Positions 1 to 12,808 of a stretch of 14,793 nucleotides of DNA are shown in pieces. This DNA comes from a candidate division WOR-3 bacterium. GTDB lineage: Bacteria > Hydrothermota > Hydrothermia > JBDRYB01. The notes under the pieces are model-generated. The model was not told the DNA's origin. It worked only from the letters and a program-made list of their open reading frames with translations, and made no database searches. Position 1 is the stretch's first letter; every line of letters starts with the position of its first letter. Both the position numbers and the translations under genes were made by a program. The stretch spans positions 1 through 14,793 of the forward strand of contig JBMFOM010000045.1 of NCBI GenBank assembly GCA_049969615.1. Reading direction: 5' to 3'.

Positions 1-69
1 TATGAATTTAACTCAGATAATAAGAGGATGTATTCAGGCAAAGACGGAACCATTATTTTGGATGAATGA
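1..69 (+). CDS. Possible 3' end of an upstream AT-rich gene (YEFNSDNKRMYSGKDGTIILDE*), product unknown
   Basis: Frame 1 is open from the window edge to TGA at 67-69. Too short to assign a product. Confidence 0.3.
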   Translation, partial: YEFNSDNKRMYSGKDGTIILDE

Positions 70-77
70 GAGATTGA

Positions 78-406
78 ATAAGAAAAAACGGAAGCGAAAT
101 AAATAAAGAGTATCTTGCTTTGTGTATAAATTCCCTTATTGGAAAAATGCAGACAGAAAGGGATGGTGGAGGTTCTGTTATCCTTCATTGGAAACCAGAG
201 CAAGTAAAAAGATTAAAGATCCCTATTCTTCCGCTCTCAACTCAGCAAAAAATCGCCTCTCTTGTCCAACAATCTCACGAAGCAAGAAAAAAGGCTAAGG
301 AATTATTAGAGTTAGCAAAAAAGCAGTAGAGACTGCTATTGAGAAAAATGAAAAAGAAGCGTTGGCTTATATTTCAAAGACGCCTTATGGGGAATTTAAT
401 GAATGA
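78..406 (+). pseudogene. C-terminal remnant of a restriction endonuclease specificity (S) subunit, 5'-truncated and frameshifted
   Basis: EINKEYLALCINSLIGKMQTERDGGGSVILHWKPEQVKRLKIPILPLSTQQKIASLV...ARKKAKELLELAK fits the HsdS TRD end plus coiled coil. There is an in-frame TGA at 75-77. One extra A in the A6 run at 317-322 would continue ...AKKAVETAIEKNEKEALAYI... to TGA 404-406. AT-rich relative to the window. Confidence 0.75.
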
Positions 407-578
407 CAGAAAATAAGAAAAATTGAGCCTGTCTCACAATACGATTTTTTGACGCCTATCAACTCTGAGAATGAGGCCAGGAGCGGATCTTCTCTGATAC
501 AGCTTCTCAATAACCCTATTCTGGGACAGGCTTGATATAAGCTACATGTTCCTGAGCGACAGCCTGGCGCGATTGACT

Positions 579-608
579 TTGAAATTTCCTGGCTCTGGGG
601 TTTAAGCT
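579..608 (+). promoter_or_regulatory. Putative sigma70 promoter TTGAAA-N18-TAAGCT for the FG-GAP gene
   Basis: -35 at 579-584 and -10 at 603-608; ATG lies 6 nt downstream with no SD. Confidence 0.45.
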
Positions 609-614
609 TTGCTC

Positions 615-2192
615 ATGCTGAACATGCTTATCCTCTTGTCTGTGATACCGTATCCCAGCAATCCGAACTGGGAATCAGTCTCAGGCTATGTTTCCACGGG
701 TGGCGGGCTTGCTGACCTGAACGGGGACGGCATAACCGATTTCGCGGTGGCCGAGGGCAACGACATGCAGGCCGCGCCAAATCATGTTTATTATGGCAAC
801 GGCACGAGCTTCTCGGTCAATCCCTCCTGGTCATCAACGGACTCAAGGTATTCGGGCCACCTCGCCATAGGGGATGTCAACGGTGACGGCCACCCTGACC
901 TGGCTGTCTCGGATTACATAAGATCCGGCTGGGGAAAGACGGTCTCTGTCCTCTACATGAACACGGGCACGGGCCTCGGAACCACGGCTTCCTGGACATC
1001 TGACTCCTGCCACTCCTTCTCGTGCGGGTTCGGGGATGTCAACGGCGACGGCAGACCGGAGCTCGCCCTCGCCTGCGGGGAGGCATACAACGGGTTCTAT
1101 GAGAAAGCGATCATATACCGAAACACGGGCACTGGCTACTCCTCTCCACCCTGGTGGCAATCCACGGTGGCCTACACGGCCTATGATGTGACATTCGGGG
1201 ATGTGAACAGGGACGGCTGGCTTGACATGGTTCTAGCTGGGAATTATATGCCGGTCTGCCTCTTCCTGAACAAGCGCGGATACTATGCTACGAGCCCGGA
1301 CTGGGAATCCCCTGAGGATTACGAGGTCATCCAGTGCGCGCTCGGGGACATCAACGGCGATGGCTGGCTTGACCTGGCCATAGCTGAGAACGGGCAACTC
1401 GCGGGGCGTAGCAGGGTCTGGGTGTTCATGAATCAGTCCGGGAGCTTTGAGAGCACGCCTTCCTGGAACTCCCAGGATTCCAGGAGCTACTATTCAACCG
1501 TTGCTTTCGGTGACCCCGATGCTGATGGCGACCTTGACCTTGCGGCAGGCGGGTGGTGGGAGCCGGCCGTCATATTTGAGAACGCGGGCGGCACCCTGCA
1601 GAGGCCTCCAGCGTGGAGCTGGTATAGGAACGGCCTGGTCTGCGAGAAGATAAGCTTTGGCGGGGTTGACGCTGGCGGCCTGGTGACCCTCACGGACACA
1701 TTCACCCTCTCCGGCAGGGGAAATGTCGTTCAACTGCCGAGGATGCCCTTCCACGAGATTGTCTACCTAAAGATAAACGGCGCGGATGTCCCGGTATCAG
1801 CGCTATATGCCGCGCCAGAGGAGGGGTTTGTCTGTTTTGACACAAGCTACACGACCTCCGGTTCCAACACCATAATCGTGACCTACACCTACTCGGTCTC
1901 CCAGGACCTGACGATAACCAACTGGGAGGATGGCATGGGCAACTACCTCTTTCTGAACAATAACGCCGCGACAGCCGATCTCCCAGCGCCAAAACCGGGC
2001 ATAAGGATATTCCCCAACCCGTTCGTGTCCGAGGCTATGGTCTCATGGACAGGGGGCGAGGCCGAGCTCTATGACGCGTCCGGAAGGCTCCTGGGCACGG
2101 TAAAGGACGGACGGTTTGGCGCCGAGCTCCTGCCAGGGGTCTATTTCATCGGCTCAGGCCCGCAGAGGGTTAAGGCGGTGAAGGGGAGGTGA
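615..2192 (+). CDS. Secreted FG-GAP/VCBS-repeat beta-propeller protein with T9SS type A-like C-terminal sorting domain
   Basis: Hydrophobic N-terminus. Six DxN/DxDGxxD/E repeats (DLNGDGITD, DVNGDGHPD, DVNGDGRPE, DVNRDGWLD, DINGDGWLD, DPDADGDLD) plus a split seventh. C-terminus IFPNPF...LYDASGR...LLPGVYFI...KAVK. ATG 615 is preferred over TTG 609. Confidence 0.9.
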   Translation: MLNMLILLSVIPYPSNPNWESVSGYVSTGGGLADLNGDGITDFAVAEGNDMQAAPNHVYYGNGTSFSVNPSWSSTDSRYSGHLAIGDVNGDGHPDLAVSDYIRSGWGKTVSVLYMNTGTGLGTTASWTSDSCHSFSCGFGDVNGDGRPELALACGEAYNGFYEKAIIYRNTGTGYSSPPWWQSTVAYTAYDVTFGDVNRDGWLDMVLAGNYMPVCLFLNKRGYYATSPDWESPEDYEVIQCALGDINGDGWLDLAIAENGQLAGRSRVWVFMNQSGSFESTPSWNSQDSRSYYSTVAFGDPDADGDLDLAAGGWWEPAVIFENAGGTLQRPPAWSWYRNGLVCEKISFGGVDAGGLVTLTDTFTLSGRGNVVQLPRMPFHEIVYLKINGADVPVSALYAAPEEGFVCFDTSYTTSGSNTIIVTYTYSVSQDLTITNWEDGMGNYLFLNNNAATADLPAPKPGIRIFPNPFVSEAMVSWTGGEAELYDASGRLLGTVKDGRFGAELLPGVYFIGSGPQRVKAVKGR

Positions 2193-2410
2193 GGTGGTTG
2201 GATTACAATTGGCCCGGGACTGACCCTTGACTCTAAACTATGGCTATGAACTATGGCCGGAACCGGAAGCTGGTGCTTCGCGACCCCCTCTACGGACTCA
2301 ATTGGCCGGAATTTGAACCTGACTCAGTAAACAGGGGCGCACGATGACTTATGCCGAGATACGCAAAGCCGCGAAAAAACTGAGTTGGCAACTCAGCGAT
2401 AATGATATAG

Positions 2411-2442
2411 TTTGATCCTGCGCAGGAAGTGGGTTATAATTT
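2411..2442 (+). promoter_or_regulatory. Promoter cassette copy 1 (tRNA-Lys promoter), TTGATC-N17-TATAAT with palindrome TCCTGCGCAGGA
   Basis: -35 at 2412-2417, -10 at 2435-2440, tRNA starts at 2449. Perfect 12-bp palindrome at 2416-2427. Confidence 0.75.
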
Positions 2443-2448
2443 CAGTCT

Positions 2449-2522
2449 GCCCCGCTAGCTCAATTTGGCAGAGCAGCGGATTCTTAATCCGCGGGTTCCA
2501 GGTTCAAGTCCTGGGCGGGGTA
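2449..2522 (+). tRNA. tRNA-Lys(CTT)
   Basis: Cloverleaf: acceptor GCCCCGC/GCGGGGT, D stem GCTC/GAGC, anticodon arm GCGGA-TTCTTAA-TCCGC, T arm CCAGG-TTCAAGT-CCTGG, discriminator A. CCA is not encoded. Confidence 0.96.
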
Positions 2523-2568
2523 TATTTGATATGCGCGAGATACTCTCTGAGCTCCGCTAATATCAGAC

Positions 2569-2704
2569 ATGAGACCTCTGACAAAGCATTGATAACTACT
2601 GGTCTGAGCCAGGGGCACTTTGTCCAACGAGAACAAGGCCATAAGAAGGGTCCCCTGAAAAATCCTGCCGAGAGAGCATTTCCTTATGGTTCTTTTCCAG
2701 CTAT
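2569..2704 (-). repeat. Intergenic repeat family, copy A
   Basis: The reverse complement of 2704-2629 matches 14717-14791 at 64/76 columns, and 2603-2569 matches 12904-12939 at 32/36 (hand alignments). Confidence 0.9.
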
Positions 2705-2810
2705 GATGAGGCTTTCGGATATGGACGAATGACAAACTCGGATTTTTTGGGGGGGTTGGCCTATGTATCACTGGAGAGGCAGAAGAGGCGTTGATGTTCT
2801 GTGGCAGGAC

Positions 2811-3911
2811 CTACTCCAGCTCCATTTCTCTCCTGGCCTCGTCAATCTCCATTACGCCAAGGGTTACAAGGGTCTCAACCTTTCTCAGCGTGAATTCCCA
2901 ATCCCTCGGGACCGGATCCTCAAACCGCAGGACGAGCGAATCTCCATACAGGTATGTTATCTCCGAATTCAATATATCCTCAAGGAATCTTAGGCGTGGC
3001 CTTATCACCTCGTTTAGGAAGGTGAGGTCGTTGGCCTCCGCGTTCGCCCTGTTGACATCCTGGACGAGGCCCAGCTTTGATCCGGGAACGCCGAATATGG
3101 CCAGAATGTTCTCCCTGGTAAGTCTGATGGATTCCGCGAACTCCCTGTCCACTGGCGGCACCTCAAGGAGCCTGACCTCGGTTCCCGGAGGGAGGATCGC
3201 GGGCCTGCCCGCGTTCGCCATTCCCCTGTGAAGGCGCTGGAACTCAGCCCTTATCCTGTCAATGTCATCCGGATTTGCCTCCTCGGAGATCACCATTGCC
3301 GCGGGCGGCACACCGCCGTTCTCAAGCCTGTTGTTCCTGTATTCTCCGGCCAGCCGCCAGAACTCGGTTTCCCCGAATGCGGCGCGCAGTGTTGAGGCGC
3401 CGTAATAGAATGGATCCTGTGGGTTAGGGCGCTTGAAGTGGATCACCTCATCATCCGAGAACGCCATTGGTTCCGGGAGCCAAGGAGGCATATAAAGGTA
3501 GCCCTCTATTACCCTGGGCCACTGGCCAGGGACAACTCTAACCCACTGGGGCGGCAAGGGCCAGAGCTCATTGCCAACCCTGACCCAATAGGCGTTGCCC
3601 GTCAGTTCCATCCACCCCTGGGTCAGATAAAGGAATGAGTATTGGGTTATGTATGGGTTGGGTTCCCCGATGAGCTCAAGGAGAGGATGGCTGGAAACCT
3701 CTTTCTCGGAATTGCCCTCTCTCAGAAAGAGCCTGATCCTCGCGCCCGCGACACGGGACGCGATTATGTTCACGCAAGCGAAGATGAATCCATCATAACC
3801 CTCAAGGAGCTCGGACGGGTTGTCCCTGTCCCTCTGACTGAGCCGGAACGAGAATACCTTCAACCATCCCATACCTTTCTTTTGTCTCTTTTTTCCGAAA
3901 ATGTTGAGCAT
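2811..3911 (-). CDS. Phage portal protein, HK97 family (orphan)
   Basis: Motifs IFACVNIIASRVA, HPLLELIGEPNPY, LTGNAYW, LWPLPPQWV, DEVIHFK, NGGVP, NAGRPAIL, IFGVPGSKLG, NRANAE, GVMEIDEAR. Start placed at ATG 3911 because GGAGG lies 4 nt upstream; the ORF track start at 3926 overlaps the -10 box. Confidence 0.93.
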   Translation of the reverse strand: MLNIFGKKRQKKGMGWLKVFSFRLSQRDRDNPSELLEGYDGFIFACVNIIASRVAGARIRLFLREGNSEKEVSSHPLLELIGEPNPYITQYSFLYLTQGWMELTGNAYWVRVGNELWPLPPQWVRVVPGQWPRVIEGYLYMPPWLPEPMAFSDDEVIHFKRPNPQDPFYYGASTLRAAFGETEFWRLAGEYRNNRLENGGVPPAAMVISEEANPDDIDRIRAEFQRLHRGMANAGRPAILPPGTEVRLLEVPPVDREFAESIRLTRENILAIFGVPGSKLGLVQDVNRANAEANDLTFLNEVIRPRLRFLEDILNSEITYLYGDSLVLRFEDPVPRDWEFTLRKVETLVTLGVMEIDEARREMELE

Positions 3912-3924
3912 GATTCCTCCGCCC

Positions 3925-3953
3925 ATAATAGTGTTTTTCCCTTAATAATTCAA
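3925..3953 (-). promoter_or_regulatory. Putative sigma70 promoter of the portal gene, TTGAAT-N17-TATTAT
   Basis: Minus strand reads TTGAAT (3953-3948), 17 nt, TATTAT (3930-3925), then gggcGGAGGaatcATG. Confidence 0.65.
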
Positions 3954-3996
3954 GGCTTACAGCCTGCCCCAAAATCTGGGATGAAATGTGTCAGGT

Positions 3997-4028
3997 CAAC
4001 AAAAGGCCCCGGTGGGGATCCGGGGCCT
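3997..4028 (-). terminator. Intrinsic terminator after the FG-GAP pseudogene, upstream of the portal promoter
   Basis: 9-bp stem AGGCCCCGG/CCGGGGCCT (4004-4012 / 4020-4028) with a 7-nt loop, followed on the minus strand by TTTGTTG. Confidence 0.75.
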
Positions 4029-4054
4029 CAGGAGGTATTACCATGATGGTAGGG

Positions 4055-5520
4055 TTATCTTACCGTTATGCTCTTTTGGTTTATTACGCTCTTGCCTGCG
4101 GTCGCGCTCACAACATAGGTGCCGGGACTGAGTGGGACGAACCTCTCACCGCTAAGCTGCCCAGAGACAAGTTTTCTGCCGCTTATGTCGTGAAGCGAAA
4201 ACTCCACTGATCCTGGGAAGCTATATGATAGGAGGAGGCCGCCCTTTCTGGGGATAACCTTGAATGTCGTGGGCTTTGGGTCATCCGGCGCGCCGAGCAT
4301 GCATTGCGCGTCCGGAATCAGGTTTTCATATATAACGAAGGTGGAATTGCCGCTGTTATAGCCGGGGTAGTCTATGGCGGATATGTCCGGGCAACCATCC
4401 AGATCATAGTCACCTATCCAAAGCCCATAAGAGCCGTTGGTCTGGAGGACCTGTTTGACAAAGCTTCCGCCGATATTCTCAAAGGCCGCCAGCTCGCCGT
4501 GGGTGCCAAGGTGATCCTCGTCAGCGCCACCACCGGACGCGACTATGTCCATGTCTCCGTCCAGGTCAAGGTCCGCGGCCTTGATGTCCGAACCCCAGGC
4601 TATTGAACCGACATATACGGGCATAAAGTTGTTGTAGCCGTCGTTCCTGAACATCCAGATTGAGTTGTCGTCCCCGAGGTTCATGAAGTTGGTCGCTATG
4701 AGGATGTCGCTGTCACCATCGCCGTCCATATCACCCGCCCAGACGCCGTGTGGGTCAGGCCTTGACTGTATGAAGTGAGGAACATAGTTCCCCGGAACCC
4801 CAGTATACTCAAACCACCAGACTCCAGCCGTGTATCCGAGCCAAGCGTGGGTTACTCCGGCCAGGTCTATGTCCCCGTCGCCATCAAGGTCAGCGGGCCA
4901 GACTGACTCCGCGCTCACATTGGGATATATGTTGTAGTTGGTAAAACTTCCCGCTCCGTTGTTCAGGGATACATAGAACCCATAACTCTCGCATGTCCAC
5001 GCCACATCCTGGTCTCCGTCTCGGTCAAGGTCAGCGCAATGAACATGGTTCGGGAAACCCCAGTTCTGCATTATGAGGATGACTGGTTGAAGATTCCGCC
5101 GTCGTTGCGAATCCAGAATACATAGACGCCATACCACGGATCAGCACCAACTATGTCCAGGTCGCCATCACCATCTATATCCGCCAGGTCAGAACCATAC
5201 ATTCCAGAGATGGGGAGGCTAGTGTTGGTGAAGCTCCACCCTCCCTGATTCCAGTAGACCATAGGCGTGTTCAGCGCGAACGGGGAAACAGCATCAGGCC
5301 AGGCTAAGCCTCCGATGTCCCTCGCGTTGTTCCGGACCTGGTAGAAGTGAAACCAGGACACTGTCTCCGTGTGTATATCGTGCCTCGCGAAGGAGAACGC
5401 CCTTGAGTGTGTTGTGGCTCCACCATCCATCATCTCGGTTTCGGCCGGCCTGTAGTCTGGGTGTTCACCCACCACAGTCAGTGGATAACTCCCCAGGAGG
5501 ATCATCGTGCAAATTAACAT
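4055..5520 (-). pseudogene. Secreted FG-GAP repeat protein with T9SS-like C-terminal domain, split by a 1-nt frameshift near 5085
   Basis: ORF 5520-5071 has SD GGAGGTG, a signal-like N-terminus and DIDGDGDLD. ORF 5137-4055 has five further DxDxDGxxD repeats and C-terminal LHDISGRKL...LSPGTYVV...KSITVR. They join as ...NDGGIFN-x-VILIMQNWG... if one base is added. Confidence 0.85.
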
Positions 5521-5544
5521 CCCACACCTCCATCGGTTTCGGGT

Positions 5545-5577
5545 GAATTATAAGCCACTTCCTCGCGAAGGATCAAA
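5545..5577 (-). promoter_or_regulatory. Promoter cassette copy 2, TTGATC-N18-TATAAT, driving the FG-GAP pseudogene
   Basis: Minus strand TTTGATCCTTCGCGAGGAAGTGGCTTATAATTC; -35 at 5576-5571, -10 at 5552-5547. Confidence 0.75.
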
Positions 5578-5602
5578 TACTGAAATCCGGTCTCCACCAC
5601 AC

Positions 5603-5634
5603 ATGATCCTGCTCAGAAAAGTAGGTTATAATTT
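5603..5634 (+). promoter_or_regulatory. Promoter cassette copy 3, ATGATC-N18-TATAAT, driving the ABC ATPase operon
   Basis: ATGATCCTGCTCAGAAAAGTAGGTTATAATTT; -10 at 5627-5632; GTG start 6 nt later. Confidence 0.7.
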
Positions 5635-5638
5635 GCCC

Positions 5639-6385
5639 GTGATAGAAGTTTCAGATCTCTGGAAATCCTTCGGCAAAGCCCCTGTTCTGAAGGGTGTGAG
5701 CCTCAAAATCAGCGATGGCGAAACCGTAACCATCCTCGGCAAGAGCGGCTCCGGCAAGACGGTTTTGCTGAAGAACATCGTTGGCCTGATGCGTCCGGAC
5801 AGGGGCAGTGTTGTGATTGATGGGGTGAATGTATCCAAGGCCAGGCTCAAAGCCCTATACGCTCTGAGAAGAAATATGGGTTTCGTGTTCCAGTGGTCGG
5901 CTCTTTTTGATTCCATGACCGTGTATGAGAACCTAGCGCTTCCCCTTGTTGAGAGGAGGGTAAGTGCGAAGGAGATTGCCGAAAGGGTCGCGGAGACGCT
6001 TGAGATGGTTGAGATGGGCGGGACGCAGAAACTCTATCCGGCGGAGCTCTCCGGCGGCATGAGGAAGAGGGTGGGGGTCGCCAGGGCCATAGTGGCGAGG
6101 CCGAGGTATCTCTTTTATGACGAGCCAACCACGGGCCTTGACCCCATCACCGCTGACACCATCTGTAACCTCATCTCTGATCTGGACAGAAAGCTCGGCG
6201 TCACATCTGTCGTGGTGACCCACGACATGCACCTCGCCACGAAGGTGTCGGACAGAATAGTCCTTTTATCCGATGGGGTTATATCCTGGGAGGGTAGGCC
6301 AGATGAGGCCATATCCTCAAAATACAGCGCGATCGCGGATTTTCTTGAGGCGACATCCCTTCAGGCCCAGGAGCACAAAGCATGA
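5639..6385 (+). CDS. ABC transporter ATP-binding protein, MlaF/Mkl/TGD3-like
   Basis: Walker A GKSGSGKT, FQWSALFDSMTVYEN, signature LSGGMRKRV, Walker B/D-loop FYDEPTTGLDP, H-loop VTHD. Likely start is GTG 5639 (MIEVSDLWKSFG), not 5507. Confidence 0.9.
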   Translation: MIEVSDLWKSFGKAPVLKGVSLKISDGETVTILGKSGSGKTVLLKNIVGLMRPDRGSVVIDGVNVSKARLKALYALRRNMGFVFQWSALFDSMTVYENLALPLVERRVSAKEIAERVAETLEMVEMGGTQKLYPAELSGGMRKRVGVARAIVARPRYLFYDEPTTGLDPITADTICNLISDLDRKLGVTSVVVTHDMHLATKVSDRIVLLSDGVISWEGRPDEAISSKYSAIADFLEATSLQAQEHKA

Positions 6386-10073: not shown

Positions 10074-10150
10074 TGTGCTTGTTTTTGATCCTCATCCTGG
10101 GTGCCCGCGGAGTGGAGATAATCTCCTGAACCGCGCTATAATCTTTGTCT

Positions 10151-12301
10151 GTGAAATTCGCGTCCGTAGCCATACCCGAGGCAGGGGCTGTCCTGACCTA
10201 CGTGGTGCCCTCTGATATGGGCGTTGAGAAGGGCGATGTGGTTCTAGTTCAGGTAAGGGATAAGCTATTCACTGGACTGGTAATGGGTGAGGCAGAACCT
10301 TTTCCGGGGGCGAGGCCCATCTACGGGAAGACCGGCCTCTCGGTACCGGAATCCCTTGTGGGCCTCGCTGAGTGGATCGGGGAATATTATCTATCCTCGG
10401 TTTCAGAGGCCGTGAGGCTCATCCTGCCGCCCGGCATGCCAAAAAAGGAGCGGGTTGAGCTCAGGATGAGAAGGGATCCCCCGTCCGTGAGCGTCAGGGG
10501 CAAGGTCCAGAAGGAGATATTCGCCTATCTCTGGGAAAGGAGGGGAACATGGTTGAGCCGAGATGGAATCATCAGGAGGTTCGGGGAACCGGGCAAGAGG
10601 TTCCTTGAGAGGCTGATTGAGCTCGGCGCTTGTCAGGTCAGGTCAAAACTACCATCGGCAAAAGGAAAGGAGGTAGAGGATTTCGTCAGGGAAGGGGGTG
10701 AGCCGTTCTTTCCGAAAAAACCGACGCCGCAACAGGCAAGGATTCTCAGTAATCTCAAGGGGGCCATGAAAAAAGGAGGGTTCACGGTCGCGCTCCTTCA
10801 CGGGGAGACCGGCTCCGGAAAGACCGCTGTCTATGCTTGGCTGGCAATGGAGGCGCTCGGAGAGGGCAAGGGCGCGATAATCCTGGTGCCGGAGATAAGC
10901 CTTACCCCCCAGCTGGCCGCTGTTTTCAAGAAGGCTCTGGGCCAAGATATAGCCGTTTATCACAGTGCTTTCAGCCCCGCGGAGAGGATGTGGGTGTGGA
11001 CTCGGGTCGCGACCGGAGAAACGAGAATTGTCTTGGGACCGAGATCTGCCCTGTTTCTTCCGATGAAGGACCTCGGCCTCGTGGTTGTTGATGAAGAGCA
11101 CGATGACTCGTATAAGTCCCAGAGGCCACCTTATTATCACGCGAGGGATGTCGCGGCAGTGAGGGCAAGGGATGAGAACGCCCTCCTTGTTCTTGGATCC
11201 GCCACCCCATCCGCTGAGTCTTATCACAATGCCAGGAATGGAAAATACCTGTATCTCAGGATGCCGGAAAGGGTTCCCGCATACATTGATCCGGTTGTCA
11301 GGGTGGTTGATCTCAAGGACGCAGAGGTCTCCGGCCCGTTCTCGTTGGCCCTTCTGGATGCCATAAGGGAAACGGTAGGCTCCGGTCATCAGGCCATCCT
11401 GTTCCTCAACCGCAGGGGCTACGCGCCATACCTGCAGTGCCTGAGGTGCGGGGTTGTTCTGAACTGCCCCAACTGCTCCATTTCATACACATTTCACAAG
11501 GATACGGGCCTGATTGTCTGTCACCTATGCGGGAGAACCTCCAGGGTTCCGGGGGCCTGCCCATCCTGCGGAAGCCCCTCCCTGATCGCGATGCGCTACG
11601 GGGTCCAACGCGTCCAGGAGAACCTAAACGCGCTCCTGCCGGGCGTAAAGGTCCTTAGGCTTGACAGGGATGTCTCAAGAAGAAAAGGCGGTCCGGAAAG
11701 GGTTTTTAGGGAATTCGCGTCGGGCGAGGCAAGGATCTTGGTGGGAACCCAACTCGTGACAAAAGGCCTTGATTTTCCGAATGTAAAGCTGGTTGGGGTT
11801 TTGCTCGCGGACATGGGGCTTTTCAGGCCAGATTTCAGGGCCGCGGAAAAAACATTTCAACTGCTCGTTCAAGTCACCGGCAGGCTGAGGACCGGCGGGG
11901 TCGTGATTATACAGGCCATCAACCCCGGGGAGCGCGCGATAGCCTTTGTCAGAAATAGAGATTACGAAGGTTTTATGTCCCAGGAGCTCGCGGAGCGCAT
12001 GAAATACGGGTATCCGCCTTTCTCAAAGCTCGTCCTGGTTGAGGCGAGGGGAAAGAATCTTCATAGGGTAATGGAGTTCCTGGAGGATCTGGGTAAGCAA
12101 ACCGGGAGCAGGCTTGGCAACAAAGGCCTGGTCCTTGGGCCTTCGCCCTCGCCATATGAGCGCGTAGCAGGGCTTTTTAGGGCGAGGTTTCTGGTCAAAA
12201 CCAGGAGGGGCCTGACGCCGGAGCTGGGCTTTCTGGCCGAATATAAGGCTCCCACTGGGATTGATCTCATGGTGGATGTTGACCCGGTGGATATGATGTG
12301 A
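10151..12301 (+). CDS. priA: Primosomal protein N' (replication restart helicase)
   Basis: GETGSGKT, LVPEISLTPQ, DEEHD, GSATPS, LNRRGYA, four CxxC pairs, KGLDFP, PDFRAAE, terminal DVDP. Start is GTG 10151 or TTG 10145; TATAAT at 10137-10142. Confidence 0.97.
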   Translation: MKFASVAIPEAGAVLTYVVPSDMGVEKGDVVLVQVRDKLFTGLVMGEAEPFPGARPIYGKTGLSVPESLVGLAEWIGEYYLSSVSEAVRLILPPGMPKKERVELRMRRDPPSVSVRGKVQKEIFAYLWERRGTWLSRDGIIRRFGEPGKRFLERLIELGACQVRSKLPSAKGKEVEDFVREGGEPFFPKKPTPQQARILSNLKGAMKKGGFTVALLHGETGSGKTAVYAWLAMEALGEGKGAIILVPEISLTPQLAAVFKKALGQDIAVYHSAFSPAERMWVWTRVATGETRIVLGPRSALFLPMKDLGLVVVDEEHDDSYKSQRPPYYHARDVAAVRARDENALLVLGSATPSAESYHNARNGKYLYLRMPERVPAYIDPVVRVVDLKDAEVSGPFSLALLDAIRETVGSGHQAILFLNRRGYAPYLQCLRCGVVLNCPNCSISYTFHKDTGLIVCHLCGRTSRVPGACPSCGSPSLIAMRYGVQRVQENLNALLPGVKVLRLDRDVSRRKGGPERVFREFASGEARILVGTQLVTKGLDFPNVKLVGVLLADMGLFRPDFRAAEKTFQLLVQVTGRLRTGGVVIIQAINPGERAIAFVRNRDYEGFMSQELAERMKYGYPPFSKLVLVEARGKNLHRVMEFLEDLGKQTGSRLGNKGLVLGPSPSPYERVAGLFRARFLVKTRRGLTPELGFLAEYKAPTGIDLMVDVDPVDMM

Positions 12302-12379
12302 TCTCGTTGAAGCATAGTGCGAGCGGTTAGTTGGGTTTGTCCGGGTCAGAACGTTCAAAACCGGTAACCGATCCACGGC

Positions 12380-12409
12380 TTGCCCGAAAACGACTCATAG
12401 GCCTATAAT
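12380..12409 (+). promoter_or_regulatory. Putative promoter TTGCCC-N18-TATAAT
   Basis: -35 at 12380-12385, -10 at 12404-12409, ATG at 12416. Confidence 0.6.
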
Positions 12410-12415
12410 TAAACC

Positions 12416-12808
12416 ATGACCGAAACAGAAACTGTGCCGCCTCAGGTTGACGACAAGGAGTGGAGCGGATTTGTGAGGGAAATGAGGCTCGCGAGGCCGT
12501 GGATCATTGCCATGGCAGTGATAGACATAATCCTTGGCGTCATGTATCTTCCCCTTGGCGCGGGGTATATCGTCATCGGCGCGATGCTCCTGGTTGCCGA
12601 GTCCAGGTTGAAAAGGTTCCTGGAAGGCAAGGCGAATTCCCTCGCGGCTTTCGCGGAACAGATGAAACTATATTTCCTGCTCTCAGTAATGCTCACACTC
12701 GCCATGGTGGTCTTCTACTTCCTCCTCATCTTTATATACGTGGGCCTCGTGATCCTTTTCGTTGTCATTTTCATTCTTCTGAGCGCGTCCGGAAAGATAC
12801 CGGCCTGA
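12416..12808 (+). CDS. Small membrane protein, DUF5362-like
   Basis: 130 aa with a hydrophobic hairpin, an amphipathic linker ending MKLYF and a long hydrophobic C-terminus. Family assignment is by recalled pattern only. Confidence 0.65.
   Translation: MTETETVPPQVDDKEWSGFVREMRLARPWIIAMAVIDIILGVMYLPLGAGYIVIGAMLLVAESRLKRFLEGKANSLAAFAEQMKLYFLLSVMLTLAMVVFYFLLIFIYVGLVILFVVIFILLSASGKIPA

Follow-up and report, generated by a model that had tools for sequence, protein, structure and literature searches.

A stand-alone HK97-family portal gene in a candidate division WOR-3 bacterium, probably part of a scattered kit for a particle resembling a gene transfer agent

Searches for new gene transfer agents (GTAs) usually seek a contiguous head-tail cluster. 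A scattered kit would escape such cluster-based searches, its hallmark genes standing as singlets in ordinary host neighbourhoods, and is recognisable only through co-conservation and a shared upstream motif. A classification paper that evaluates three GTA groups with an established genetic basis describes GTAs as endogenised, often across multiple loci, as mostly vertically inherited, as not fully packaging their own genome and as forming caudovirion-like particles that deliver mostly random host DNA (PMC9662315). In the Rhodobacter capsulatus agent (RcGTA), 24 genes are placed in five loci, 17 head-tail genes (terminase, portal, protease and capsid among them) lying in one locus and accessory genes elsewhere (PMC5721377). 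For Rickettsiales and Holosporaceae endosymbionts, several GTA clusters per genome, singlet terminases and a stronger selection on head than on tail genes are described (PMC9254644), and in the Caulobacter crescentus GTA the protein GafY, below the repressor RogA, binds its own operon, the main cluster and about 18 accessory promoters, working with IHF and RpoD at sigma-70 promoters (PMC11150451). Here we describe a stand-alone portal gene of the HK97 family on contig JBMFOM010000045.1 of a candidate division WOR-3 bacterium (assembly GCA_049969615.1); the window analysed is the entire contig, 14,793 bp.

The portal gene is present and intact in all three species of the genus, evolves under purifying selection, and shares an upstream motif, CACTATT, with other phage-derived genes that lie scattered over the genome. 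We consider it likely that it is a working part of a scattered, co-regulated and domesticated particle kit, siphophage-derived and, on genomic criteria, GTA-like.

The portal gene and its dispersed partners

The contig, C45 in our numbering, belongs to a metagenome-assembled genome (MAG) of 2.06 Mb in 203 contigs, rated 98% complete and called G000 here; G001 and G002 are the two other species of the genus, and L-numbers denote locus stretches from relatives or metagenome contigs. The portal unit consists of the following features.

2811..3911, minus strand: HK97-family portal gene (PF04860, PHROG), 366 codons, intact, apparently a single-gene unit, stop at 2811-2813
3916..3920, minus strand: GGAGG ribosome-binding site, 4 nt before ATG 3911 and 6 nt past CACTATT
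3927..3933, minus strand: CACTATT, candidate -10-like promoter element overlapping TATTAT; the exact motif plus GGAGG is matched at C45:3916-3933

Counted from its first ATG, the open reading frame (ORF) 2811..3926 on the minus strand has 371 amino acids (aa); the likely start is ATG 3911, 4 nt past the GGAGG at 3920-3916, which gives a reading of 366 codons, is common to the three species and agrees with the database relatives P0006-P0009, likewise of 366 aa. The match to PF04860 covers the whole family (E 6.2e-60; 203.5 bits against a cut-off of 39.1; profile positions 3-319 of 321), and the PHROG portal families phrog_2662 (5.9e-64) and phrog_12 (6e-59) were matched as well. As a member of this family the product would be expected to assemble into a dodecameric ring at a single vertex of the capsid; the closest solved structure by sequence is the RcGTA portal Rcc01684 (6te8/6tba; E 1e-16), and a family search of G000 found the portal in single copy. 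The preliminary description of this DNA, made from the letters of the window, had read an intact 366-codon HK97 portal ORF here, and the full-length family match without stops bears this out. It had also judged the composition of the gene to be host-like, in keeping with a G+C content of 0.558 (genome 0.538) and a distance in relative synonymous codon usage (RSCU) at the 17th percentile of 911 host ORFs, nearer the genome mean than 83% of them. An assembly join at the gene borders, which it had named as a possible source of error, is excluded, since the portal lies 2.8 kb from the nearer contig end.

Both other species of the genus carry orthologues with 86-87% aa identity and no stops, so that the occurrence in one strain only, against which the preliminary description had warned, does not apply. 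Among 41 genomes sampled from the class, 64 class genomes and 272 phylum genomes, orthologues are limited to the three species of the genus, other portal matches reaching at most 30% identity. In a collection of 5.8 billion proteins the portal clade comprises six clusters of at least 69% identity, and the next proteins are no more than 40% identical; the closest portals on viral contigs are only 33% identical, and further scans of genome contigs yielded no relative, only two unrelated or weak loci (32% identity; a 33-residue match). In all ten contexts seen, three genomes and seven metagenome contigs (76-87% identity), the portal is an orphan with host-like genes around it. It is neighboured by a WD40/PD40 gene, a DUF5122 propeller gene and then mfd in G002, and by a GT4 glycosyltransferase gene and NFACT in G001. 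Several contigs carry a block matching C113 on one side of the portal or a block matching C16 on the other, and L041 has both.

The partners that a portal would need were found elsewhere in G000, as follows.

C69:7847-9157: large terminase of the Terminase_6N+6C type, stand-alone, between a TonB-C gene and an LTXXQ/Metal_resist gene
C21:10826-11368, minus strand: S78 prohead protease (E 7e-6)
C21:9804-10829, minus strand: HK97 major capsid protein (E 1.6e-44)
C21:9241-9807, minus strand: head-tail adaptor (phrog_442, 1.3e-16)
C21:7439-11368, minus strand: the operon of these three genes, in which the adaptor is followed by two neck-sized ORFs of 125 and 114 aa, the tail tube ORF of 237 aa and an ORF of 134 aa
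C124:3151 to the contig end, continuing on C173: possible further operon with weak tail-tip and holin hints (G000 orthologues)

Portal, capsid, protease, terminase and adaptor are each present once in G000. Host genes for a pyrimidine-nucleoside phosphorylase and for polysaccharide synthesis border the C21 cluster at its two ends. Its capsid finds the RcGTA capsid as the second-best solved match (E 1e-7). The 237-aa protein (264 aa from the first start codon) was modelled by AlphaFold2 (AF2) from ten lineage-specific homologues at a pLDDT of 72; siphophage tail tube proteins (such as 8xkn_B, YSD1 6xgr, 9jgh and Chi 8vhx) rank first among the matches of the model, in PDB as well as in BFVD, with E-values of 6e-6 to 1e-4 and a probability of 1.0. 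The TM-scores are only 0.30-0.37, low values that can be expected from a protein of two domains whose relative orientation may be wrong in the model. The C21 ORFs of 125, 114 and 134 aa, orf228, orf124 and the 393/1014-aa protein gave nothing significant against PHROG and Pfam. No match to the terminase families PF03354 and PF20441 was found in G000, the terminase proving to be of the Terminase_6 type, and the loci are free of integrase genes, both tyrosine recombinases encoded in G000 being located on other contigs.

The possible further operon was recognised on two metagenome contigs, in which the portal is divergent from genes for proteins of 228, 127, 80, 282 and 1014 aa, followed by same-strand ORFs of 176 and 310 aa; the first gene is the orthologue of orf228 and is preceded by CACTATT. 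The 228-aa protein scored 0.79 in the ESM Atlas, too low to count as a lead.

The terminase is kept in the three species at 75-80% aa identity without stops, and the head/neck/tube cluster is syntenic in G002 (seven genes, 62-80% aa identity). Its neck/tube part is present without stops in all three species, and the capsid was seen in two of them: in G001 a contig of 4.6 kb carries orf134, the tube gene, orf114, orf125 and part of the adaptor gene, within which it breaks off, and another contig has the beginning of the protease gene at its end, so that the empty capsid query in G001 is attributed to a break in the assembly. On the 144,884-bp contig C3 of G002 the portal (40.9 kb), the head cluster (93.5-97.4 kb) and the terminase (138.8 kb) lie about 40-51 kb apart, with mfd, a trmFO-like gidA, a histidine kinase gene and the chorismate synthase gene near or between them. 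The presence of the three loci on a single contig with host genes between them indicates that the scatter is real and excludes a binning artefact.

Selection was measured between the species of the genus as the ratio of nonsynonymous to synonymous substitution rates (dN/dS, Nei-Gojobori). The portal gave 0.067-0.077 at a dS of 1.06-1.18, the terminase 0.10-0.11, the protease 0.088, the capsid 0.094, the adaptor 0.12, the tube 0.15, orf134 0.17 and orf125 0.33, and seven host control genes (ten comparisons at similar dS) gave 0.05-0.29; with dS close to saturation (1.1-2.0), these ratios are rough. None is near 1, and the portal, at about 0.07, is equal to or below most host controls and is the best conserved of the phage-derived genes, in line with the orphan orthologues at dN/dS below 1 for which the preliminary description had proposed to look. 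Host ORFs on the contigs concerned are mostly 62-95% identical between species, which puts the portal near the top of the range. The presence of the set in the three species, host-like dS and codon usage and the lack of a close phage relative are signs of vertical inheritance, seen in only three genomes, among which the portal distances are star-like.

The terminase carries one peculiarity. In all three species the motif I-T-[VI]-T-E-A (ITVTEA or ITITEA) has a threonine in place of the Walker B aspartate, which is kept in the comparison terminases of P74-26 (V-I-L-D-E-A), T4 gp17 (I-Y-I-D-E-C) and a phage remnant in G030 (V-V-I-D-E-A). Walker A, the arginine finger, the catalytic glutamate and the GTP coupling motif are retained, as are the nuclease's three acidic residues, the latter identified by alignment to G20c (5m1f).

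Some further observations concern these loci. Downstream of the terminase, in the same orientation, all three species have the LTXXQ/Metal_resist (Spy/CpxP-like) gene (G000:C69:7289-7801; L027:10112-10537; L028:3256-3699), while the other neighbours differ, and it could be co-transcribed with the terminase. In G001 (C199) the terminase locus directly adjoins priA and the 130-aa gene, which in the window (10145-12808) are found at a distance of 6 kb from the portal. NFACT is a neighbour of the portal in G001 and, in G002, of the terminase; an ancestor may have carried the two singlets at a short distance from each other. The G030 remnant, from another family (C111:1296-8632; L026), has the usual terminase-portal adjacency: it holds a P22-type antirepressor gene, a small terminase-like gene, a terminase (34% identity), a portal (29% identity) and a gp10-like fragment, and is cut off by an IS110-family transposase gene, beyond which host genes follow.

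The CACTATT motif, its candidate regulators and the flanks of the portal gene

In all ten portal sequences CACTATT ends 15-16 nt before the ATG, and GGAGG, or AAGGAG in L044, follows it after 6-9 nt (mostly 6), in intergenic sequence that otherwise differs among the ten upstream regions. The same heptamer was found 6 nt before the GTG of the terminase, without a ribosome-binding site, before the protease operon and before orf116, a gene of 116 aa (C21:821), each in the three species, as well as before orf228, a gene of 226 aa (C124:3151), in the four sequences seen (G000, G001 and two metagenome contigs). The 2.06-Mb genome holds 113 copies on both strands; nine of 1843 gene-start windows contain one, and four of these nine belong to the units named here, orf228 having been removed by the overlap filter. 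The signal of CACTATT is thus its placement at orthologous genes in diverged genomes, not its abundance. Of a -10 hexamer, CACTAT retains the second-position A and the sixth-position T. If transcription started about 7 nt past it, as we infer, the portal mRNA would carry GGAGG at its very beginning, and the terminase mRNA would have virtually no leader.

The motif also marks one border of the gene. Sequence upstream of position 3933 is unrelated between contexts, and the 264 nt between the portal stop codon and the downstream tRNA gene found no match in G001 or G002; the conserved unit, as read from these alignments, is bounded by CACTATT at one side and the stop codon at the other.

Two features on C21 are candidates for control of the set.

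C21:81-821: small regulatory operon of three genes headed by orf116, facing the gene below
C21:925-1590: 221-aa protein of the CI/LexA type with helix-turn-helix (HTH_3) and Peptidase_S24 domains (phrog_4 repressor, 1e-45; S24, 5e-22)

This arrangement is kept in G002, and orf116 is 80-82% identical across the three species. By its sequence, orf116 could be hypothesised to resemble region 2 of an extracytoplasmic function (ECF) sigma factor, which sequence and fold searches do not confirm; a wide VIA-align search returned generic helical bundles only, with Z up to 11, in the chance range for helical matches. The C21 repressor may be either the SOS repressor of the host or the element's own, and PF01726 (LexA_DNA_bind) gave borderline matches only (23.5 bits).

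CACTATT was observed at other genes as well. A gene with a SocA/Panacea antitoxin domain (G000:C21:2708-3376), between the repressor gene and the head cluster, has CACTATT-N6-GGAGG upstream and no counterpart in the syntenic stretch of G002. A 222-aa winged-helix (MarR_2-like) protein encoded between gltX and mraZ (G000:C1:77313-77981, minus strand) has the motif 6 nt before its GTG, a 53% identical paralogue on C99:61-651 and homologues in G001; since searches of G002 did not recover it and the paralogue exists, we set it aside as a core member. Motif plus GGAGG stands also before genes for a 115-aa protein (G000:C8:24029-24376, minus strand) and a 424-aa protein (G002:C11:49840) whose family was not recognised.

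Around the portal unit the window holds the following features.

3925..3953, minus strand: sigma-70-like TTGAAT-N17-TATTAT, 9 of 12 positions matched, only its 3' half overlapping CACTATT
4003..4029, minus strand: terminator-like hairpin with a 10-bp stem after the upstream gene, which has FG-GAP repeats and a type IX secretion system (T9SS) tail, followed by a U-tract at 4002-3995, UUUUGUUG
4055-5137, minus strand: FG-GAP gene (Pfam)
2448..2523, plus strand: tRNA-Lys(CTT) gene (ARAGORN), convergent with the portal, a neighbour only and outside the system
609-2192, plus strand: FG-GAP gene (Pfam)

Several statements of the preliminary description can be read against these features. The GGAGG that it had proposed is evident in the sequence and kept in nine of the ten orthologous upstream regions, L044 carrying AAGGAG instead. 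It had called the gene independently promoted from TTGAAT-N17-TATTAT: a conserved promoter-like element does lie there, namely the CACTATT common to the other loci, but the proposed -35 box is not conserved, TTGAAT being absent from the nine other upstream regions, and sigma-70-like sites show no excess in the region (2 found; 1.6 +/- 1.3 expected in shuffles). The terminator that it had placed between the upstream gene and the portal proved real; the hairpin (4029-4003, minus strand), overlooked by a simple scan, has a dG of -20.8 kcal/mol and a z-score of -3.77, equalled by 1 of 200 shuffles, and as predicted from its sequence it insulates the portal unit. The tRNA-Lys(CTT) and two FG-GAP genes that it had given as flanks were recovered, and a repeat scan of window 1-6000 found no copy of the 3' end of the tRNA around the portal, in agreement with its statement that no att duplication is present. 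Its phrase "no other phage genes" holds within the 14.8-kb window, where Pfam searches with 15 ORFs and PHROG searches with nine revealed no further phage structural gene, but not for the genome, in which the proposed check for unlinked genes located the terminase on C69 and the protease-capsid cluster on C21.

The adjacency to the tRNA is peculiar to the bacterium's own species, the relatives holding the portal in other contexts; in G001 and G002, tRNA-Lys(CTT) lies on contigs without the portal and with other neighbours, as viewed over about 1.5 kb per side without family scans. Two partial direct repeats (2206-2227 and 2299-2320) between the FG-GAP gene and this tRNA resemble, on the minus strand, a tRNA T-arm and 3' end (GGTTCAAAT-like), the second pairing with the tRNA-Lys T-arm, and may be scars of integrative elements at the tRNA. 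A box, AAGTGGGTTATAATTT, occurs upstream of the tRNA at 2427-2442 and again at 5619-5634 and 5546-5563 in the divergent spacer before an ABC-ATPase gene; it looks like an ordinary host promoter of the TATAAT type and differs from CACTATT. The overlapping ORFs 4055-5137 and 5071-5520 on the minus strand both have FG-GAP repeats and are likely one T9SS-tailed gene split by a frameshift or sequencing error, with an orthologue 5 kb from the portal in metagenome contig L041. The first 500 nt of the contig are AT-rich (G+C 0.364; 0.54 elsewhere), include a short ORF (120-329) with a weak match to a type I restriction-modification specificity domain (PF01420, E 0.0024), and are probably a remnant at a contig break.

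Competing explanations for the scattered set

Under the explanation that we favour, the kit would be split into at least five transcription units, that is, the portal, the terminase, the C21 head/neck/tube operon, the C124/C173 operon and the C21 regulatory operon, each having CACTAT(T) about 7 nt before GGAGG or, for the terminase, before the start codon. CACTAT(T) would be a special -10-like promoter served by a dedicated factor, which would allow joint induction of the dispersed genes. Once made, the portal, as the DNA channel of the head vertex, would seed procapsid assembly, offer the terminase its docking site during DNA filling, and have the adaptor, neck and tail attached to it. An HK97-type head holds far less than 99 kb, and since the loci span about 99 kb on G002:C3, such a particle would probably be unable to carry its own genes and would be a GTA-like viriform, not a phage. 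A fuller version of this account, which we put forward tentatively as possible rather than probable, is an independently evolved viriform of an uncultured, non-proteobacterial lineage with T9SS-type surface proteins, whose single-gene units would be joined by a private -10-like CACTAT(T) code without a -35 element; its reader would be a small factor, perhaps akin to sigma region 2, under a self-cleaving CI/LexA-type repressor, DNA damage would switch the kit on, and the Walker B threonine would be specific to the lineage.

Several points weigh against this explanation. CACTATT is not enriched at gene starts (9 windows; a mean of 13 for permuted heptamers), the exact motif plus GGAGG does not exceed its reversed control in frequency (5, 4 and 6 matches; 3, 9 and 10 for the control), and the element is a candidate promoter predicted from sequence. 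The Sigma70_r2 match of orf116 is sub-threshold (E 0.0026), its profile found nothing among solved structures, and Foldseek gave no PDB match at E of 0.001 or below. Among the parts of a tailed particle, no small terminase was identified and the tape measure family PF10145 had no match in the genome, and the tail-tip/lysis operon depends on weak leads: a 1014-aa protein nearest by ESM features to clusters named "phage tail protein" (0.91) and Sipho_Gp37 (0.85), a holin PHROG match of the 80-aa protein (4.7e-5) and a Laminin_G_3 match of the 282-aa protein below the cut-off. Judged from the sequence, the Walker B threonine could mean that the terminase has lost the ability to pump DNA. A single narrow clade supplies all the evidence, near-saturated dS makes the selection ratios rough, no RNA runs covering window positions 2400-4300 were found, and particle production and DNA transfer are predictions read from the genes.

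Part of these points would be met by a kit that is domesticated and co-regulated but is not a DNA-transferring GTA, serving instead in lysis-linked release or competitor killing, or as heads that borrow a helper tail, with poor or no filling. The exchange of the Walker B aspartate, the missing tape measure and small terminase and the weak tail-tip assignments speak for it; the other terminase motifs are kept, however, and a dN/dS of 0.10 fits an enzyme still at work, while tail tube and neck genes are retained under selection, so that we regard it as unlikely. The preliminary description had offered, besides the dispersed particle, a decoy that poisons the heads of HK97-type phages and a repurposed ring channel. 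Exaptation of the portal alone to either role, its link to the other loci being historical only, would suit a gene that forms a unit by itself under an upstream element of its own, is insulated by a terminator, has moved among host contexts between species and is the best conserved of the phage-derived genes. Such a portal would hardly be expected to share its motif with the cognate terminase, the protease-capsid operon and two further units, nor would all partners of a working portal be co-retained under purifying selection, and no conserved defence-type neighbour lies beside it; we hold exaptation to be quite improbable. Remains of an old prophage, decaying and still to be purged, or else an error of assembly or binning, might be suspected in a 203-contig MAG from a class that has phage remnants, such as the one in G030 (C111) cut by the IS110 transposase. 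This reading is hardly credible and already contradicted by copies without any stop, dN/dS of 0.07-0.17 at dS above 1, regulatory motifs conserved inside unconserved spacers, host-like codon usage, the position of all three loci on one 145-kb contig in G002, and the lack of phage relatives above 80% identity among viral contigs, the protein collection and metagenome contigs.

The dispersed GTA-like particle, one of the options of the preliminary description, is thus the one that gains support from the unlinked terminase and protease-capsid cluster and from intact orthologues at a dN/dS of about 0.07, and the decoy and ring channel are disfavoured by cognate partners co-conserved with the upstream motif of the portal. 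If particles are made, the set would represent an independent domestication in a little-known lineage and a natural system for studying how scattered virion genes are co-ordinated, and with its Walker B threonine the terminase lends itself to testing which share of the packaging motor is indispensable to a domesticated particle. The locus is also a warning to annotators that an "orphan portal" is not necessarily debris.

Comparison with known systems

The loci correspond to a GTA in being endogenised across the genome, with at least five units on four to five contigs in G000 and no integrase at the loci; in vertical inheritance and in being too dispersed to package itself, the set leans towards the same description. 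The likeness to RcGTA (Rhodobacter capsulatus, Rhodogtaviriformidae) lies in siphophage-derived genes that sit at several loci of the chromosome, evolve under purifying selection and are, here probably, passed on with the host (PMC5721377, PMC9662315). The present terminase and portal, in contrast, are each single-gene loci, and no single co-transcribed head-tail locus unites the genes; the host is not an alphaproteobacterium, has T9SS-type sorting domains, and its genes are only remotely similar in sequence.

With the elements of Rickettsiales and Holosporaceae the set shares the gradient from head to tail genes (portal 0.07, capsid 0.09, tube 0.15, orf125 0.33). Those elements are RcGTA homologues in Alphaproteobacteria, whose portal is described with the capsid complex (PMC9254644), whereas descent is separate here and the portal itself is a singlet. 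Since RcGTA genes in several clusters and singlet terminases occur elsewhere, scatter as such is already known. The GafY regulon has a parallel in one motif preceding five scattered units, among them the operon of a candidate regulator that faces a repressor gene; it differs in that the motif here is a -10-like CACTAT(T) at a fixed short distance to the ribosome-binding site or start codon, with no conserved -35 element.

Prophages of HK97/SPP1-type siphophages have the same gene families, the C21 order of protease, capsid, adaptor, neck and tube, and a CI-like HTH+S24 repressor gene facing a small operon. Here, however, no integrase, replication or att features were found at the loci and the genes do not form a contiguous block, so that neither excision nor self-packaging of the element would be expected. 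Capsid-forming phage-inducible chromosomal islands (cf-PICIs) carry head and packaging genes without a full tail set, as contiguous, integrase-bearing and mobilisable islands, whereas the present genes are scattered and fixed. In the main texts of the literature, taken without supplementary gene tables, we found no stand-alone conserved portal and no GTA-like element of such layout outside Alphaproteobacteria. Relative to these systems, the novelty lies in a set of separate descent in another host lineage, with a portal that stands as a singlet and a -10-like motif that links the units.

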